Source of the DNA: Deltaproteobacteria bacterium
GTDB lineage: Bacteria; Myxococcota; JACRCW01
Length of the DNA stretch: 64,000 nt
Assembly (NCBI GenBank): GCA_016218805.1
Contig: JACRCW010000161.1
Location: 1 to 64,000, forward strand
Direction: 5' to 3'
Shown piece after piece: positions 20,098 to 32,454 of this stretch. The position numbers were made by a program, and so were the translations under genes. The notes beneath the pieces were generated by a model that did no database searches, was not told the origin of the DNA, and saw only the letters and a program-made list of their open reading frames with translations. How positions within the stretch are numbered: the stretch's first letter is position 1; each line of letters opens with the position of its first letter.

Positions 20098-23000
20098 GTG
20101 CATGACCAGCTTCGGCCGCCCGGCCGCGGGATTATCGTGCCATACGGCTCCTCCACACGTTCGCGCCTCGGGCGCTTCTTCGCGGTCCTTTCGCGCCTGG
20201 GGGTGCTGGCGCTGCTGCTGGGCGCGGCGGCGGGCGTGCGCACCCAGGCGTCCCTGGAGCATTCGCTGGCGGAAGGCGGCCTGGGCGGGCCCGCGCTGGG
20301 CGGTGCGTCCGACGCAGACGACGACGATGGGGAGTACAAGCTCTCCAGTCTGCGCATCCTCAACCGCGCGGTGCTCCACATCAAGGAGCAGTACGTGGAC
20401 CCCAAGCGCGTGGTCCCGCGGGACATGCTGCTGTCCGGGTTGGAGGCCATTGAGAAGCAGGTGGCCGAAGTGATGGTGGAGGAATCCGCCGCCAAGGACG
20501 CGGTGCTGGTGTCCGTGGGGGCGGAGCAGAAGTCATTTGACATCAAGAACGTGGACAGCCTGTGGGAGATGAGCTTCAAGCTGCGTGACGTGCTGCGCTT
20601 TGTGGAGCCGCGCCTGCAGCCGGACCAGGACAAGCGCGACGTGGAGTACGCCACCATCAACGGCATGCTGTCCACGCTGGACCCGCATTCCGTGCTGCTC
20701 CCGCCCAGCGTCTTTGAAGAGATGAAGATGACCACCCAGGGCGAGTTTGGCGGCCTGGGCATTGTCATTGGCCTGCGTGACGGCGCGCTCACCATCATCA
20801 GCCCCATGGACGGGACCCCCGCGGCCGAGGTGGGCCTGGAGGCCAAGGACCAGATCACCAAGATTGGGGACGAGTCCACCATCAACATGGCGCTGGACGA
20901 GGCGGTCAAGCGCCTGCGCGGCAAGCCCGGGACGCAGGTCACCATCTGGGTGCTGCGCAAGGGGTGGACGGAACCGCGCCGGTTCGCCATCACGCGCGCC
21001 ATCATCAAGATCGTCAACGTGACGCACAAGCTGCTGCCGGACAACGTGGGCTGGGTGAAGGTCAAGAACTTCCAGCAGGACACCGCCAGTGACGTGCAGG
21101 ACGCCATCCGCACCATGCGCACCGCCGCGGGCGGCGCGCTGGCCGGCCTCATCCTGGACCTGCGCAACAACCCCGGCGGCCTGTTGGAGCAGGCGGTGGA
21201 CCTGTCTGACCTGTTCCTGGACACCGGCGTGATTGTCAGCACCGTGGGCGAGGGTGACCGCGTCCGCGAGGAGAAGACCGCGCGCTGGGCGGGCACCGAG
21301 CGCGACCTCCCCGTGGTGGTGCTGGTCAATGGCGGCAGCGCGTCGGCGTCAGAGATTGTGGCCGGGGCGCTCAAGAACAATGACCGGGCGCTGGTGGCGG
21401 GCACCACAACGTTTGGCAAGGGAAGCGTGCAGACGCTGCTCAACTTCAAGGACAACAGCGCGCTGAAGCTGACCATTGCGCAGTACCTGACGCCCGGTGA
21501 CATCTCCATCCAGTCCATTGGCATCACGCCGGACGTGGAGCTGGCGCCGGTCAGCGTGGGCAAGGAGTCCGTGGACCTGTTCCCGGACACCTCCGGCGGC
21601 CGCGAGAAAGACCTGGACAAGCACCTGGAGGACGCCCGCACGCGGACCTCCAAGCCCTCGCTGGTGGTGCGCCACCTGGAAGACCCGCCCGGCGAGGACG
21701 ACGAGAAGGACGCCCGCGAGGTGGGCGACAAGTTCAAGAGCGACTTTGAGATTGAGTTTGCGCGCGGGACGCTGCTGCGCGGCGGTGCCGAGGGCCGGAC
21801 GCGCAAGGCGCTGCTGGAAGCGGCCGAGCAGTTTGCCGCAGGCGCGGTGGCGGAGCAGGAAGGCAAGCTGGTGGAGGTGCTCAAGGGTCTGGGCGTGGAC
21901 TGGACCGCGCCGGCGCCGCTGGAGGGCCGCGAGCCCGCCCGCCTCACCGCGCGCGTGCTGGGACCCGTCACCGCCACGGCGGGCGAGAGCCTGGAACTGC
22001 GCGTGGAGGTGCAGAATGATGGGCCGGGCACGGTCCACCGCCTGCGCGCGGCCACGGAGAGCGACAACACCTTCTACGCGGACCGCGAGTTGTTGTTCGG
22101 GCGGCTGGCTCCGGGCGAGAAGCGCGAGTGGACCGTCAAGGTGAAGCTGCCCAAGGACATGCCGGCGCGCGCGGACGAGGTGAAGGTGGTGTTCCACGAG
22201 GCGGGCGACCGGGTGCCCGCACCGCTGGAGGTCCGCACGCTGGTGAAGGACCTGCCGCGGCCGGCGTTCCGCTACACGGTGTTCCTGGATGACGGGAAGG
22301 GCAACGGGGACGGACAGCTGCAGCCGGGTGAGTCCGCGGACCTGGTGCTCACGGTCACCAACGACGGGCCGGGCGTGGCCGAGGAACCGCTGGTCCTCCT
22401 CAAGAACATGGGTGGCCGGGAGCTGTTCATCAAGGAGGGCCGCGCCAAGCTGGAGAAGCTGGCGGCGGGACAGTCCGTGACGGCGCACGTGGCCTTTGAG
22501 GCGCAGCCGGACGTGAAGCGCCAGGTGGAGATGCGGCTGACCGTGATGGACAGCGCCATGGCGGAGTACCTGAGCGAGAAGTTTGTGTTCCCCGTGGTGG
22601 ACAGCCGCCCGCCGGTGAAGCCGGGGCGCCAGGGTGCCACGGTGACCGCGGACACCCCCCTGCTGGCGGCGGCCGTGCCCTCCGCGGCGCCGGTGGCGCG
22701 GCTGCGCAAGGGCGCGCACGTGGCGGTGGACCGGATGGTGGCGGAATACGCGCGCGTGGACCTGGGCGAGGGCCGGTTTGGGTTCCTCCCGTTCTCCGCG
22801 CTGCGCCTGGGCGGCGCCAAGGACGCGCCCAAGGGTGCGCCCCCCGGGGTCACCTGGCTGGTGCACCACCGCGCGCCGGACGTCAGCGTCATGGGACCGC
22901 CGCCCGGCACCACCACGGCCAAGGGCGCCCTGGCGCTGTCCGCCAGCGTGGCGGACCCGCGGGGACTCAAGGACACCTACGTGTTTGTGAATGACCAGAA

Positions 23001-23220
23001 GGTCTTCTACCGCTCGCTGGCGGGCGCGGCGGGGCAGCCCGCCTCCACGCAGGCGCGCCTGGAAGCGCAGCTGCCACTGAAGAAGGGCACCAACTACGTG
23101 AGCCTGGTGGTGCGCGTGGACAATGAGCTGACCGCGCGGCGCATCCTGGTCATCCACCGGGACCAGGAACCGGAGACAGCGCAGCGGCCCGCGCAGGACA
23201 ACGGGCTCCGGCACCGCTGA
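20098..23220 (+). CDS. S41 carboxy-terminal processing protease, MXAN_5808-type with C-terminal extensions
   Basis: LDPHS, PDZ GEFGGLG, DLRNNPGG, SASASEIVAG, FGKGSVQ, long Ig-like C-terminus; start uncertain. Confidence 0.93.
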   Translation: MHDQLRPPGRGIIVPYGSSTRSRLGRFFAVLSRLGVLALLLGAAAGVRTQASLEHSLAEGGLGGPALGGASDADDDDGEYKLSSLRILNRAVLHIKEQYVDPKRVVPRDMLLSGLEAIEKQVAEVMVEESAAKDAVLVSVGAEQKSFDIKNVDSLWEMSFKLRDVLRFVEPRLQPDQDKRDVEYATINGMLSTLDPHSVLLPPSVFEEMKMTTQGEFGGLGIVIGLRDGALTIISPMDGTPAAEVGLEAKDQITKIGDESTINMALDEAVKRLRGKPGTQVTIWVLRKGWTEPRRFAITRAIIKIVNVTHKLLPDNVGWVKVKNFQQDTASDVQDAIRTMRTAAGGALAGLILDLRNNPGGLLEQAVDLSDLFLDTGVIVSTVGEGDRVREEKTARWAGTERDLPVVVLVNGGSASASEIVAGALKNNDRALVAGTTTFGKGSVQTLLNFKDNSALKLTIAQYLTPGDISIQSIGITPDVELAPVSVGKESVDLFPDTSGGREKDLDKHLEDARTRTSKPSLVVRHLEDPPGEDDEKDAREVGDKFKSDFEIEFARGTLLRGGAEGRTRKALLEAAEQFAAGAVAEQEGKLVEVLKGLGVDWTAPAPLEGREPARLTARVLGPVTATAGESLELRVEVQNDGPGTVHRLRAATESDNTFYADRELLFGRLAPGEKREWTVKVKLPKDMPARADEVKVVFHEAGDRVPAPLEVRTLVKDLPRPAFRYTVFLDDGKGNGDGQLQPGESADLVLTVTNDGPGVAEEPLVLLKNMGGRELFIKEGRAKLEKLAAGQSVTAHVAFEAQPDVKRQVEMRLTVMDSAMAEYLSEKFVFPVVDSRPPVKPGRQGATVTADTPLLAAAVPSAAPVARLRKGAHVAVDRMVAEYARVDLGEGRFGFLPFSALRLGGAKDAPKGAPPGVTWLVHHRAPDVSVMGPPPGTTTAKGALALSASVADPRGLKDTYVFVNDQKVFYRSLAGAAGQPASTQARLEAQLPLKKGTNYVSLVVRVDNELTARRILVIHRDQEPETAQRPAQDNGLRHR

Positions 23221-26095: not shown

Positions 26096-27595
26096 TTAGC
26101 GCCCCTTCCAGTGGCGGATGGCTTCGCGGTCCGGCCCGAACCGGAACTGCGGCGTCAGCTCCCGCGTGTGGCAGTTGCGGCACAGCCGCTCACCCGCACC
26201 GCGCTCAATGTTGTCCCGCCCGCCCTGCTCAGCCACGTGGTTGCGGCCGGGACCGTGGCAGGCTTCGCACTGCACTTCAGCAAAGCCGCCCATGCGCGCC
26301 GGGTCCCGGAAGCCCCCCGCCGTGCCAAACGCTGTGGAGTGGCAGCCCACGCATTCGCGGTCCATGTCCTGCGCGGTCTTGCGCAGGCTGGCCATGGCGC
26401 GGCTGTGGCGCGTGTTGAGCCACGAAGTGAACTCCTGCTCATGGCAGGACGTGCACGCGCGGCTGCCGGCAAACGGGCTGCCCGGCGGCGGCTCCCCCTG
26501 CGGGGTCATCTGGTCCAGCAGCTGGCTTTCGCGCTCCGCGTTGCGGCGCTGGTAGGCCGCCACTTCCGCCGCCACCACGGGGTCCTCCGGCAGGGAGAGC
26601 TCCATGGCCACCGGTTCAAAGTCCAGGCGGGACCGCGCCTGGTCCGCCGTGATCTGCGCTTCCAGCGCCTGGAGCTCCGCACGCAGGCGCGCGTCCTCGC
26701 CGGACTGCAGCTTCCGGCGCAGGTTCTCCGCCCCCACGCGCGTGCGCTGGTAGTCCTCACCGCCCAGCAGGGTCCGCTCTCCCGCGCGCACGTGCACCGT
26801 GGCCCGCGCCAGGTACTTGCCGCCCTTGCCACCGCTGAGCACCACGCTGGCCGCCGGCTCCCCGTTCAGCACCACCCGCCGGGGCGCAAACATCAGGTGC
26901 CCGCCGTGGCCCGTGACAACCAGCGAGAACCCACCCGCTTCAGCGGCCCACGCCGCGGCGGTGTCCACCGTGGTGTGGGCCAGCAGGATGGCCAGGTCAT
27001 GCGCCTGCGCGCGCGCCAGCGCCTCCCGCAGCGCCGGCACCGCCGGCGTGGCGTTCAATGACAGGCCCGCGGGCCACAGCGCCGGGTCGGTGGCCCCCAC
27101 AAGCAGCACGCGCAGCCCCGCAACCTCCCGCACCGCGTGCGGCGGAAAAGCGGGCTTGCCCTCCTTGTCCACCAGGTTGGCCGCAATGGCCGGCAGCGCG
27201 TTGCGCGCCACCACGTCACGCATCCAGCGCGCGTTGTCGCCCGCGTCCAGGTCACCCGGCACAAACGCGTCCAGGAACCGCCCGTAGGACCGCGCCACCA
27301 CCTCCGCCTTGTCGCCGTACTGCTGGCGCACCGGCGCGGGGATGGGCAGCCCCTTGAGAAACGCGTCTCCCACGTCCAGGGCCAGCGTGGGGCCCCGGCG
27401 CCGTTCGTCCTCCACCAACCTTGCGTGCCTGGCCAGACCGCCAAGCGGGCGCTTGGGTCAACCGCAGGGGGCCAGCTCACCGTCCCGGCTGCTGGACAGG
27501 ATGATGCTGAACACCTTCAGGTCATTGACCGGTGCGCCCGCTGACGTTGCCGAAACCACCAGGGCCAGTGCAGCGAGCCGTGACGCGTTGTTCAT
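26096..27595 (-). CDS. Putative selenoprotein: UshA-like metallophosphoesterase-fold domain fused to a tetraheme cytochrome c (UGA at 27460-27458 read as Sec)
   Basis: ORF 27595-27458 (signal peptide ...GELAPCG*) is in frame with ORF 27418-26096, bridged by UPKRPLGGLARHARL; LDVGD, AANL, LLAH, TGH motifs; CTSCH, CVGCH, CEACH, CRNCH heme sites. Confidence 0.85.
27421..27457 (-). promoter_or_regulatory. Bacterial SECIS-like hairpin
   Basis: After UGA: 11 nt, then stem GCUUGGC, loop GGUCUG, stem GCCAGGC; G-first loop similar to the fdhF-type GGUCU apex. Confidence 0.7.
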
Positions 27596-27873
27596 GGCCG
27601 CGCAGTCTACGCAGGCCCCGGGCGGTGTGGGAAGCGGCACCGCTTGCCCGGGGCGGCGTCGCCGCGAGGAACCTCGCCTTTCAATGGGGAACCACTGGCG
27701 AGCACGCCGTTACCAGAACCCACCACCCCGCGACGCGCACGGCTCGCCGCCAGGGCTGGCATGGTGCGAGGGCGGCGGCTCGCGGGTTCGGCTTGGGCAG
27801 GGATGGCGAGGGACCGGCCGGAAACGCGCCGCACCGCTGCCGGCAGGACCTGGTCACCCGGCTTTGGGCAGAA

Positions 27874-29036: not shown

Positions 29037-29972
29037 CTACGACGATCGCCCGGTGGGGGCGGGTGCGAGCCACGCGGCGACGGCCGCGGTGACGCTGTCA
29101 CCGGTCTTCTCTTCCTGGTCCAGCCAGATGGGCGAGGAGTTGCACTCCAGGAACACCAGGCGCCCGCGCGGCGTCCGCCGCAGGTCCACGCCGGCCAGGA
29201 CCAGGCCATTGGCGCGCGCCCACGCCACCGCCGCGCGGCGGATGTCCGCGGGGAGGCGCACCGGTTCATAGGTGGCGCGGCCGGCCTGGTAGGCGGCGCT
29301 ACCGCGGAAATCCACCACGGGCGCGCCCGGCAGGCGCAGCGCGCGGCAGGACAGCACGCGGCCGCCCAGCAGGAACAGGCGCACGTCGTCGCCGGGGATG
29401 CGCTCCTGCAGGATGACCGGGGAGGCGCGCAGCGCGTGCAGCGGCTCACGCGGGCCCACCACGCGGGCCAGCGCGCCACCCGAAGCGGGCTTGGCAATGA
29501 CCTGCCGGTGGCGCCGGATGAAGGCCCGCGCCGCGGCGGGGTCATTGGTGACCCGCGTGCGCGGCAACGGGACGCCCAGGCGCTGACCGCACAGCAGTTG
29601 CTGCAGCTTGTTCTGGGCAAACCCGCCGGGCCCCGGCGGGTTCAGCAGCCGCACGCCGCGCGCGTGCCATTCCAGCAGCAGGCCGGTGACCACGTCCGCG
29701 CGTTCGCGCGCCAGCATGAACGGGGTAAGCCACCGCTCCGCCACCAGTGCACGCCCGTCAGCGCCGGGACGCAGCGGCGGGAAGGTGGAGGGGAGGGCGC
29801 GCACATAGACGGCGGCGGGGAGCGGCGGGCGCGCGGGGTCCAAGGTGAACGGTTCACCGTGGGCCAGCGCGGAGACATCCAGCAGTTCCGCCCGGCCGCC
29901 CAGCGCGCGCGTGACGGCGCGGACCTGGGCGTCACCCGGCGGACCCACCAGGACCACGCGTCCCGGGCGCAC
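29037..29972 (-). CDS. RimK-like ATP-grasp ligase
   Basis: NKLQQL, PRTRVTNDP, IAKPASGG, LQERIPGDDVR, GVDL, FLECNSSP. Confidence 0.88.
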   Translation of the reverse strand: MRPGRVVLVGPPGDAQVRAVTRALGGRAELLDVSALAHGEPFTLDPARPPLPAAVYVRALPSTFPPLRPGADGRALVAERWLTPFMLARERADVVTGLLLEWHARGVRLLNPPGPGGFAQNKLQQLLCGQRLGVPLPRTRVTNDPAAARAFIRRHRQVIAKPASGGALARVVGPREPLHALRASPVILQERIPGDDVRLFLLGGRVLSCRALRLPGAPVVDFRGSAAYQAGRATYEPVRLPADIRRAAVAWARANGLVLAGVDLRRTPRGRLVFLECNSSPIWLDQEEKTGDSVTAAVAAWLAPAPTGRSS

Positions 29973-29979
29973 GCGCGGC

Positions 29980-32454
29980 TCAGGCCACGGCGGGGTGGCG
30001 CTTGCGGTCGCGCCAGACCCACCACAGGCCCAGCGCGGTCAGCGCCCAGCCCAGCCACGTACTGAAGCTCAACCACCGCGTGTAGAACGCGCTGGCCTGG
30101 TCGGACTTGGGCAGCAGCGCCATGCGGTCACCGCTCATGCGGAACAGCGTGCCGTCAAAGGTGTGCCAGTACGGGAAGTACGAATAGTTCAAGCGGTACA
30201 GCTGACCCGGCTGCAGTCCGCTCACGGAGAAGGACTGGTTGTTGCTGCCCCAGCTGAACGCGGGGCTGGCGGCAGCGGCAGGCGGCGCGGCGGTGTCCGG
30301 GAACTTCTTGACCAGTTCCAGCTTGTTGAGGAACTTGCCCACGTCGTCAAAGTCGTCAATTTCCGGGTTGTGCTGGTACCAGGTGCCGTAGTGCCGCATG
30401 GGGTAGGGCGCGTAGTAGTCAAAGGAGACCAGCCGCGGTGGGGCGCCGCCGGCGGCCACCACGGACGCCTTCATCTTCTCAAACGCGGACTCCACGGAAG
30501 ACGCCGAGCCGTGCAGCAGCACCACCTCCACCTGCGGGGGCAGGTCGTCACCCGGCTTCACGGCCAGCACTTCGTAGTTGGGGCTGAGTTGCTGCTTGGC
30601 GTAGAAGTACAGTTCCACGTACTTGAAGGGGACGTTCCCCTTGAGGTCCGCGTAGGCCACCACGTGCTTGTGGACGGGCGTGACCACGGGCGTGGGGTGC
30701 TCCTGCAGCTTGAGGATCTTGTACAGCCCAATGACGACGGGTTCGCCGATGGAATACGGCTTCATCTTGTTGAAGAACTCATCCCCGCCGGCCACCACCC
30801 AGCTGATGCCGTATTCCTTCATCTGCGCCACGCGCGCGTCATCCGTCAGGTCCGTCACCGACGGGTAGAGCAGCGGGCCGTTGTAGCTGTTGGCTTTCAG
30901 CTGGTTCGCCGCGCCCATGGGGAAGTGGTAGGCTAGGCTGGACTGCACAAACAGGCCATTGATGGCCTCATGCCCGGTCTCCCGCCACAAGGACGTGGAC
31001 ATGAAGTGACAGGAGAGGAACGGGTAACGGCCGTAGTCGCTGAAGTACTCAAACAGCACGCGGCCCTTTTCGGGCTGGTTCCGGAAGAAATCCAGCACTT
31101 TGTATTCATTGGACAGGTACGCCTTGTTGGCGGTGGCCATCACCTTGTCGCGCTCATTGTGCGGGAGCGCTGCGGTGGTGATCCAGCACAGCGCCATGAG
31201 TCCGCCGAACACGACCTGGTAGGCCGGCAGCATCCAATCCGGGCGCCCCGGTGCCAGCGCGCTGCGCAGGTAGAACACGGTGGCGGGCGTCAGCACCACC
31301 AGGGCGAACAGCATCATGTACGCCATGAACCGGTAGTAGTGGAAACCCATGGGCACGCTGGTGGCGATGAACCCGCTGGTCAGGATGCACAGTCCCAGCG
31401 CCAGGAACGCGGCAAAGGTGACCAGCGTGGTGGAGCGGTGCGCGTGCCGGTGCGCCACCAGGCTGGTGGCCAGGAACACCAGCGTGGGTTCGGTGGCGCC
31501 AATGAGGACAAACTGCCCGTGGAACACGTCCCGCAGCACGCGGAAGTACGCAAAGAACGGGTAGCGGAAGAAGACCTCAAAGAAGTCACCCTGCGGGCGG
31601 TGGATGTCCAGGCCGGTGTAGGAGGTCAGGAACGCCGCCATGGGCAGCACCCAGAATGCCATCAACAGCGCGGCGATGGCGTGCGCCTTGATGATGTCCC
31701 AGCGGCGCTCGCGGTACCAAAGCAACGCCATGAACGCGATGTAGAAGCTGAACACCGCCGTCATGGTGTGCGTGAGCAGCAGGATGGCAAACCAGATGGC
31801 GGTCCAGCGCACCTCGTGCGGGCGGCCGTTGCGCAGCAGGCGCGTCAGGCTGCCAATGTGCATGATCATGAAGTGCCAGCCAAACGCCTGGCTGAACAGC
31901 CCAATGTTCATGACGGCGGCGGCGCCGATGCCCCACCACTGGTAGTCATGGTTGATGAACCAGAACGAGAACGCGCAGGCGGTGAGCGCCGTCCACCAGC
32001 GCGCGCGCTGCACGTGCTCCGGGCGGTGCTCCATGATCTCTTCCACCCACGGCCGCACCGCCCAGATCCACGGCAGCGGCAGGGTCATCATGGCCAGCAC
32101 CAGCAGCAGGTGGGAGGACAGGCGCACCGGGTCCGACGAAATCAGCGTCAGCGGAACGGAGAGGATGGCCCCCGCCCAGTGCACCAGGAACGAGTAGAAC
32201 TGGAAGGCGGCATATCCGGTGAAACAGCTGATGTCATAGAACGTGTAGCCCAGCGTGAGCAGGTTGCTGCGCAGCCCGTGCATGGCCTGGATGTGGCCCG
32301 GCAGGTCCACCGCGGCAATGGGCTCCGTGGAGAAGTAGATGCGGAACCACCACGCCATGAAGGCTACGTAGACGAGGTACACCACCGGGGTGGGGTCCCA
32401 CGGGAGGCGGGAGGAGGGCCCGGCGGCAGCCGGCGTGCTGGGTTCTGCGCTCAT
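29980..32454 (-). CDS. Large membrane protein, PTPS-related/GT-C glycosyltransferase-like
   Basis: DLPGH near the N-terminus, FTGY..FQFY, about 12 TMs, periplasmic domain, YSYFPYW, C-terminal TM. Confidence 0.75.
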   Translation of the reverse strand: MSAEPSTPAAAGPSSRLPWDPTPVVYLVYVAFMAWWFRIYFSTEPIAAVDLPGHIQAMHGLRSNLLTLGYTFYDISCFTGYAAFQFYSFLVHWAGAILSVPLTLISSDPVRLSSHLLLVLAMMTLPLPWIWAVRPWVEEIMEHRPEHVQRARWWTALTACAFSFWFINHDYQWWGIGAAAVMNIGLFSQAFGWHFMIMHIGSLTRLLRNGRPHEVRWTAIWFAILLLTHTMTAVFSFYIAFMALLWYRERRWDIIKAHAIAALLMAFWVLPMAAFLTSYTGLDIHRPQGDFFEVFFRYPFFAYFRVLRDVFHGQFVLIGATEPTLVFLATSLVAHRHAHRSTTLVTFAAFLALGLCILTSGFIATSVPMGFHYYRFMAYMMLFALVVLTPATVFYLRSALAPGRPDWMLPAYQVVFGGLMALCWITTAALPHNERDKVMATANKAYLSNEYKVLDFFRNQPEKGRVLFEYFSDYGRYPFLSCHFMSTSLWRETGHEAINGLFVQSSLAYHFPMGAANQLKANSYNGPLLYPSVTDLTDDARVAQMKEYGISWVVAGGDEFFNKMKPYSIGEPVVIGLYKILKLQEHPTPVVTPVHKHVVAYADLKGNVPFKYVELYFYAKQQLSPNYEVLAVKPGDDLPPQVEVVLLHGSASSVESAFEKMKASVVAAGGAPPRLVSFDYYAPYPMRHYGTWYQHNPEIDDFDDVGKFLNKLELVKKFPDTAAPPAAAASPAFSWGSNNQSFSVSGLQPGQLYRLNYSYFPYWHTFDGTLFRMSGDRMALLPKSDQASAFYTRWLSFSTWLGWALTALGLWWVWRDRKRHPAVA

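Follow-up and report, generated by a model that had tools for sequence, protein, structure and literature searches.

The UshA-like PCGU family, represented by the profile NF041198 (UshA_like_PCGU, 519 positions), corresponds to the 'COG0737, UshA-like, CxU' selenoproteins of Zhang and Gladyshev 2008, whose GOS marine survey lists 76 selenocysteine (Sec) sequences of it (PMC2398784), and the family is also tabulated in PMC9312934 and PMC13188914. The passages on the family in these three papers make no mention of hemes, a metal site or a function. Term look-ups in PMC10454023 and PMC12013277 returned nothing on the family, and the relevant part of PMC8840924 gives background on heme packing only. 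A literature search of articles without their supplements retrieved no experimental study of the family, and no paper joining 'nucleotidase' and 'cytochrome c554'.

Other described systems share single features with the locus. MccSep/ExtKL of Geobacter sulfurreducens (NF040886) is a periplasmic multiheme protein with both Sec and Cys, having five hemes and a C-terminal Ig-like Sec domain; according to the passages of PMC13510729 on this protein, the Cys ligates heme 2, and the Sec of another domain lies beside heme 2. Heme 2 is described as the active site in c554, OcwA and MccA in the corresponding part of bioRxiv 10.1101/641308. A second UshA-like (seleno)protein family has its own model (NF049981, 262 positions) and, according to PMC13188914, a CxxU motif.

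The gene studied here lies in a 64,000-nucleotide stretch (the window) of a Deltaproteobacteria genome, G000, whose assembly is 92% complete in 170 contigs. As judged by profile and motif comparison, the gene is a member of the catalogued UshA-like (seleno)protein family. Its features, all on the minus strand, are:

26096..27595, minus: whole gene, UshA-like PCGU domain and c554-like tetraheme domain, 499 aa with TGA46 as Sec
27536..27595, minus: probable Sec-pathway signal peptide, residues 1 to about 20, judged by eye
26591..27520, minus: 5'-nucleotidase/SoxB-type metallophosphoesterase N-terminal fold, residues about 26-335, by structural and profile alignment
27458..27466, minus: C44-G45-U46 motif, TGA at 27460-27458
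27427..27446, minus: predicted bacterial SECIS hairpin, 7-bp stem, loop GGUCUG, -11.9 kcal/mol
27367-27365 (D77), 27253-27251 (D115), 26977-26975 (H207) and 26908-26906 (H230), minus: site-2 positions kept, by HMMER alignment to 2z1a
26513..26581, minus: long linker helix, residues 339-361, by DSSP of the model
26099..26485, minus: cytochrome c554-like tetraheme domain, residues 371-499 (PF13435 E 1e-14; 1bvb E 8e-15)
26455-26441, 26353-26339 (heme 2), 26269-26255 and 26182-26168, minus: CxxCH sites, by motif

Comparison with described systems

Scored with C for U, the read-through protein matched NF041198 with 224.1 bits (E 3e-66) over both domains (profile positions 3-266 and 320-518, the heme part at protein residues 294-486), and it shared with the family PCG[U/C] followed by GGxAR, the degenerate nucleotidase domain and the heme region. 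Since the score lies below the curated cut-off of 275, the protein is a divergent relative in the wider family and not an equivalog. The cut-off was passed by P0011 (296 bits), P0019 (297), P0110 (334) and P0112 (343), and the Cys paralog of G000 (224) and P0103 (235) fell below it as well. An earlier note on this DNA had described the joining of a nucleotidase fold and hemes in one chain; because NF041198 already spans the hemes, this architecture was catalogued before and is no surprise. The family profile matched 199 of the 201 phylum genomes (E <=1e-10, one-domain matches included). The gene itself thus adds little to a catalogued family, and its value is as a tractable entry to a large one. 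The present analysis contributes a comparative SECIS test, the correlation with selA, the site-2 subtype pattern and the probable open heme 2, the last two of which translate into concrete variants and assays.

The likeness to UshA/CD73 and SoxB lay in the fold (3ivd Z 33.3, rmsd 2.2 A, 276 residues; SoxB Z 30.8-30.9) and in the kept site 2. Unlike these enzymes, the protein has neither the DxH motif nor the His of GNH, a CxU is inserted after motif I, and a tetraheme domain stands in place of the C-terminal substrate-binding domain of 5'-nucleotidases. The N-terminal metallophosphoesterase fold was present but the two-metal site and the C-terminal nucleotide-binding domain were not, and identification of the read-through protein as a 5'-nucleotidase was rejected. 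Residues 371-499 aligned with residues 1-199 of Nitrosomonas europaea c554 (1bvb) at 33% identity, with four hemes and three candidate distal His; the domain is however shorter and fused to an enzyme-like scaffold, its host is not known to be an ammonia oxidiser, and it scored 49 on NF043010 against a cut-off of 400. The resemblance to MccSep is one of analogy, as the protein has four hemes and an N-terminal Sec, no homology over the Sec domain, and a weak, heme-motif driven match to NF040886 (21 bits against a cut-off of 250); assignment to MccSep was likewise rejected. The match to NF049981 was weak and N-terminal (E 0.005, 16 bits against a cut-off of 140).

A single frame interrupted by TGA

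Reading through TGA46 gave a single minus-strand frame of 499 codons and a TAA from 27595 to 26096, in which codon 46 (27460-27458) was the sole departure from table 11. Retrieval of this frame agreed with the proposal that two ORFs are one gene split by the TGA alone. The motif C44-G45-U46 sits in GELAPCG-U-PKRPLGGLAR, and the four CxxCH motifs begin at residues 381, 415, 443 and 472. Standard ORF calling yielded only the downstream 440-aa ORF (26096-27418), and the protein collection holds a 439-aa fragment of the read-through protein (P0002), so standard gene callers do miss the full gene, as had been expected. Five close homologs (P0003-P0007, 44-52% identity) begin just after the UGA as stored; Sec forms of the UshA-like PCGU family are kept in collections as N-truncated cytochromes.

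Inspected by eye, the leader (residues 1 to ~20) showed a basic n-region, a hydrophobic core and a small-residue cleavage region. Similar hydrophobic leaders were found upstream of the TGA in 13 homolog loci, and residues 1-20 had low pLDDT in the AlphaFold2 model. No promoter or terminator consensus was found.

The TGA codon was unchanged in contigs of the metagenome runs X1 and X3, of which X1 is possibly the source of the assembly and thus not independent, and X3 comes from the same study. Record 22 of X3 had 0 differing letters against the window over 27201-27716. All runs carrying the gene were groundwater metagenomes of one study, and no RNA dataset was among those listed as carrying it. 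When related contigs were compared, 26 of 30 listed differences fell at third codon positions, which points to selection on the frame downstream of the TGA.

Recoding of TGA46 and the SECIS element

At the codon aligned with codon 46, homologs carried TGC/TGT or TGA, which is the in-frame UGA opposite Cys by which selenoproteins are recognised. P0103, a natural Cys form of 47% identity, was placed in the clade of the query beside four Sec forms. In the 146-row alignment A1, Cys was found in 99% of the rows covering each of positions 44 and 46, most of these rows having been picked for CxC. A FastTree tree needed 5 Sec/Cys changes; it had many open forks and long branches, and we therefore claim no order of events.

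The hairpin GCUUGGC-GGUCUG-GCCAGGC starts 11 nt past the UGA, where the earlier note had put it, and folding of the stretch placed the stem in the MFE structure. Its stability alone was no better than chance in a shuffle test (40-nt stretch, z -0.97, 32 of 200 shuffles folding as well; 61- and 101-nt stretches, z positive), so the weight of the hairpin comes from comparison among loci. The bacterial SECIS model, as given in PMC13188914, has a loop of 3-9 nt, a stem of 4-16 bp, a G in the first two loop positions, a distance of 16-37 nt from the UGA and an energy of at most -7.5 kcal/mol. The query hairpin fell within every limit (6 nt, 7 bp, GG, 18 nt, -11.9 kcal/mol).

The stem as defined on the query was then compared among loci that are related to each other: at least 6 of 7 pairs were formed in the same register in 19 of 20 other TGA loci versus 0 of 32 Cys loci. 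Stem pairs 1, 2 and 4 were changed on both sides (GC/UA, CG/UA/AU and UA/GC). Cys forms sharing the GG[LF]AR peptide were all removed by the filter behind these 20 TGA and 32 Cys loci. An earlier, looser set, which overlaps with this one, had five GGLAR Cys forms, with 3, 3, 4, 5 and 6 stem pairs. In that earlier set, at least 6 pairs were present in 6 of 7 TGA forms (query included) versus 2 of 33 Cys forms. The postulated SECIS element directly 3' of the UGA was thus upheld by the model and by a stem kept among TGA forms and not among Cys forms. Together with the selA correlation, the tRNA-Sec and the Sec-type SelD described below, the alternation of Cys and Sec and the conserved hairpin supported read-through with Sec. 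By comparison among loci, TGA46 encodes selenocysteine in this lineage, and presumably in this cell.

Nucleotidase-type domain and metal site 2

The read-through protein was modelled with AlphaFold2 on a 146-row alignment, in which row 1 had C for U and 110 rows had been picked for CxC and hemes. The model reached a pLDDT of 92.9 and a pTM of 0.90, the latter of which suggests that the N-domain and the heme domain pack against each other in a defined way. The N-domain superposed on 5'-nucleotidases with Z 33 and rmsd 2.1-2.2 A over 275-276 residues, in accord with the nucleotidase fold predicted before, and the alignments reached about residue 358. In the model, helix 339-361 would be placed like the interdomain helix of 5'-nucleotidases.

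The metal-ligand roles of individual positions were assigned from E. coli UshA, which we take to apply here. When aligned to 2z1a with HMMER, the query had S36/D38 at the place of the site-1 DxH and L116 at that of the catalytic His of GNH; with S36, D38, L116 and G232 in the query, the site-1 ligands and the catalytic His are lost. The view that the usual metal ligands are altered was therefore correct for site 1 and the catalytic His and incorrect for site 2, as D77, D115, H207 and H230 are all present. Among the 146 rows, DxH was found in one and the catalytic His in one, whereas the heme ligands were invariant.

The site-2 ligands had a bimodal distribution in A1, four being present in 52 rows, 2-3 in 20 and 0-1 in 74 (n=146). 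All four were found in 5 of 5 Sec-plus-heme loci (query included), four of these five forming one clade, versus two or fewer in 17 of 18 heme-less Sec forms. Heme-fused Cys forms were mixed, with a complete site 2 in 7 of 35. Across the aligned loci, the pattern is that metal site 2 is retained in the subtype with Sec and hemes and lost from the heme-less Sec forms.

Cytochrome c554-like domain

The C-terminal domain matched PF13435 with 55.7 bits against a gathering score of 20.8, and residues 371-499 superposed on the 1bvb structure with Z 11.8 and rmsd 3.1 over 129 aligned residues. Four CxxCH motifs and these matches were in line with the four c-type hemes predicted from the sequence. Ten homologs appeared to have three hemes, and most of them (8 of 10) carried a CxxxCH and are four-heme proteins. 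A cytochrome c assembly family, PF01578, was found twice in G000.

H397, H453 (invariant) and H495 are candidate distal His ligands, and 127 of 146 rows had a C-terminal His 14-26 residues past the final heme motif. Four hemes thus share three candidate distal His, and by homology heme 2 (C415-H419) is probably the open one; it was singled out with the ligand numbering of c554, which we assume to hold here.

The c554 module was also seen, in octaheme forms, fused to AhpC/thioredoxin-like domains, some of these with CPHC (P0021, P0152, P0173, P0219 and P0243). A stand-alone c554-like tetraheme cytochrome was located beside a ResB-like maturation gene in G000 (G000:C75:11922-13882; L125:5922-7882). 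Proteins of the UshA-like family were in turn fused to a DsbA-like domain (P0160), or to DUF1573 with its own CGC (P0014, P0114 and P0196); PMC13188914 includes DUF1573 among selenoprotein families, with the motif UGC.

Proposed function

The reading we prefer, with a probability of about 0.5, is that the protein is a periplasmic thiol/selenol oxidoreductase and that the c554 module recycles it. UGA46 would be recoded in a SelB-dependent manner through the in-frame SECIS, as comparison argues for the lineage and as we infer for this cell. The leader, the CxxCH motifs and the two cytochrome c assembly genes suggest that the protein is exported and that four c-type hemes are attached. With site 1 and the catalytic His lost, the N-domain would serve as a nucleotidase-derived scaffold without two-metal phosphoester hydrolysis, and it may present C44 and U46 as a redox pair running a selenenylsulfide cycle. 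The c554-like domain could then supply or remove the two electrons that recycle the selenenylsulfide. The most likely job would be to reduce S-S, S-O or peroxide bonds in the periplasm, with the respiratory chain as the electron source. In the Sec-plus-heme subtype, site 2 may hold one metal that binds the substrate or polarises it. This proposal draws on the exchange of Cys and Sec, the SECIS, the catalytic losses beside invariant heme ligands and the pTM of 0.90, as well as on the recurrent fusion of c554 modules to AhpC/thioredoxin-like domains and the precedent of MccSep as described in part of PMC13510729. If the redox coupling is true, selenocysteine and a multiheme chain would be joined here in a second architecture.

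Several observations count against the oxidoreductase. No heme motif was present in 16 of the 20 other TGA forms, including a sister clade in G002 and G003, and most heme-fused forms carried Cys; the Sec domain can thus work without a fused cytochrome, which argues against the wiring of Sec to hemes. The joint retention of four site-2 ligands in 52 of 146 rows fits metal binding and a non-redox or mixed chemistry. The neighbours were not conserved, and selA and selB were not found in G000.

A different use of the same parts is a composite site, in which the open face of heme 2 is contacted by C44 or U46, either through axial ligation or via a soft metal such as Cu(I). The protein would then act as terminal reductase of polysulfide, sulfite, selenite or an N-oxide and would have converged on MccSep or MccA. 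The shortage of one distal His and the placement of Cys and Sec at heme 2 in the MccSep described in PMC13510729 are consistent with this, as are MccA-type NCBIfam/PDB matches, which were weak and heme-motif driven (4rkm E 2e-5). We consider it unlikely, because heme-less Sec forms were the majority of the TGA forms seen, no sulfur-respiration genes adjoin the gene, and the family is common in the GOS marine samples covered in PMC2398784, which does not point to sulfur respirers only.

The kept site 2 would be accounted for by a single-metal hydrolase or transferase, with one metal bound by D77/D115/H207/H230, with D38, C44 or U46 completing the site or acting as the nucleophile on a thioester, S-sulfonate (SoxB-like) or phosphoester, and with hemes that set or sense the redox state. 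The 5 of 5 Sec-plus-heme loci (query included), the 52/20/74 distribution and the SoxB fold (Z 30.8-30.9) speak for such an enzyme. It appears rather improbable, however, given that 94 of 146 rows had lost at least one site-2 ligand and yet kept the hemes, that the Cys paralog had none of the four, and that the protein lacks the catalytic His and has another domain in place of the substrate-binding C-domain of nucleotidases.

That the Sec-plus-heme subtype is a three-centre periplasmic enzyme of a kind not described so far is a quite doubtful further possibility: the Cys/Sec pair, one site-2 metal and the open heme 2 would form one active site, closed by the hinge motion of 5'-nucleotidases, and reduce sulfur-sulfur or sulfur-oxygen bonds. 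If true, Sec-heme catalysis would have been invented independently of MccSep and have spread far beyond sulfur respirers.

Selenocysteine machinery in the genome and across the phylum

The genome was searched for the sel genes whose presence the earlier note had made a check on read-through, and the outcome was divided. G000 has a tRNA-Sec (selC; 72.7 bits, anticodon TCA) and a selD with its own in-frame TGA (ASSGG-U-AAK) in an intact frame (G000:C28:1894-2829, minus strand; L017), whereas selA and selB were not found in the 92%-complete assembly with TIGR00474, TIGR00475, PF03841 and PF09107 or by tblastn with the SelA of G001. A second selenoprotein gene of the SelT/SelW/SelH family was also intact, with CAV-U (CxxU) at G000:C157:43943-44176 (plus strand; L156:943-1176), a TIGR02174 score of 52 bits against a cut-off of 34 and a hairpin with a GGUCU loop.

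We examined the genomic context of selA and selB in relatives. G001 (same family) and G002 and G003 (same class) all have both genes, on different contigs, so two gaps are needed in G000 unless the genes are linked there. Genes that follow selA in relatives (a MinD-like ortholog and a DnaJ/HTH-like gene) were not found in G000 by a query that also missed those of G002; the best MinD-like match in G000 was a flagellar-cluster paralog. In G002, rho is located about 2.5 kb upstream of selA; in G000, 64 nt separate the end of rho from the end of contig C57. The neighbours of selB were not conserved among relatives. This synteny is suggestive only as to gap versus loss. In our judgement an assembly gap is considerably likelier than loss.

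A DNA pattern for the TGA form was run against the 201 genomes of the phylum and matched 83. The matches were sorted by hand and 70 genomes with the right 15-nt spacing were kept, only fetched loci being translated and checked. With G000 and the unpublished G166 left out, selA was present in 68 of 68 other genomes with the form, and the form was present in 0 of 59 other genomes without selA. As 58 of the 68 belong to one family, the correlation amounts to seven families and not to 68 events. G000 was the only one of the 70 pattern-positive genomes without selA, yet it has selC, a Sec-type selD and two further TGA genes. G153, which is 100% complete, gave no match to selA and none to the TGA pattern with the right spacing, whereas three sampled genus mates have both; a joint loss of selA and the TGA gene is possible there.

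These results bear on whether the gene is a relic, a true Sec gene by descent that is no longer read through after loss of selA and selB, with the Cys paralog on contig C59 doing the job. An assembly that is 92% complete would seldom miss both genes through independent gaps, and the solitary position of G000 among the pattern-positive genomes agrees with loss. We find a relic highly doubtful all the same, in view of the well-scoring tRNA-Sec with its TCA anticodon, the intact selD and SelW-like frames, the perfect SECIS of the query, and the retention of selA and selB in the same-family G001 and both same-class genomes; the gene block after selA was also not found in G000, as if a whole contig were absent, which is a weak point since the query missed G002 too.

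The view of TGA46 as an error of the assembly, as a nonsense mutation or as a codon for Trp is almost certainly wrong and already largely refuted: although the hairpin alone was not significant against shuffles and the codon was verified at the level of contigs, TGA was found at the same codon in 20 other loci and in the contigs of two runs, the aligned residue is Cys and not Trp, and the third-position bias (26/30) indicates selection on the downstream frame.

G000 was also surveyed for further TGA genes. A first genome-wide survey was too strict and missed known cases. The second survey recovered the present gene and the SelW-like one, but selD, with its bulged stem, escaped it, so it is no census. 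One candidate, C28:6357, had no family match.

Gene neighbourhoods and additional observations

Gene neighbourhoods were compared at 10 TGA loci and at three loci of G000, 13 in all, and 42 of their ORFs were scanned in Pfam; no shared pathway and no conserved neighbour naming a substrate emerged, and no sulfur-respiration genes were adjacent. In four loci (L060, L070, L071 and L123), and not in the window, the gene immediately after the Sec gene encodes a PilZ domain. In G002 and G003, the heme-less Sec form is immediately preceded by a NuoE/NuoF pair (L122:8538-10346 and L123:3342-5154). Upstream of the gene, the window encodes an ATP-grasp protein (29037-29972, minus strand), which best matched RiPP-maturase models below their cut-off, and a membrane protein of 824 aa that matched no family (29980-32454, minus strand); this pair also precedes the ortholog in L070.

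The Cys paralog of G000 (G000:C59:20511-22196, minus strand; L068:6511-8196) has PCGC, four hemes and a probable lipoprotein leader, retains 0 of 4 site-2 ligands and was placed in a different, all-Cys clade. A candidate on contig C35 of G000 was rejected as an ordinary metallophosphoesterase outside the UshA-like PCGU family. A cluster of tRNA or tRNA-like genes occupies the contig start G000:C19:1-2300, with an HNH-like ORF, so labelled by eye, inside it (about 1152-1727); a homolog of this ORF follows selA in G001, G003 and G035. Elsewhere in the window, a 1040-aa S41 carboxy-terminal protease with a PDZ and extra Ig-like domains (20098-23220, plus strand) was ordinary.
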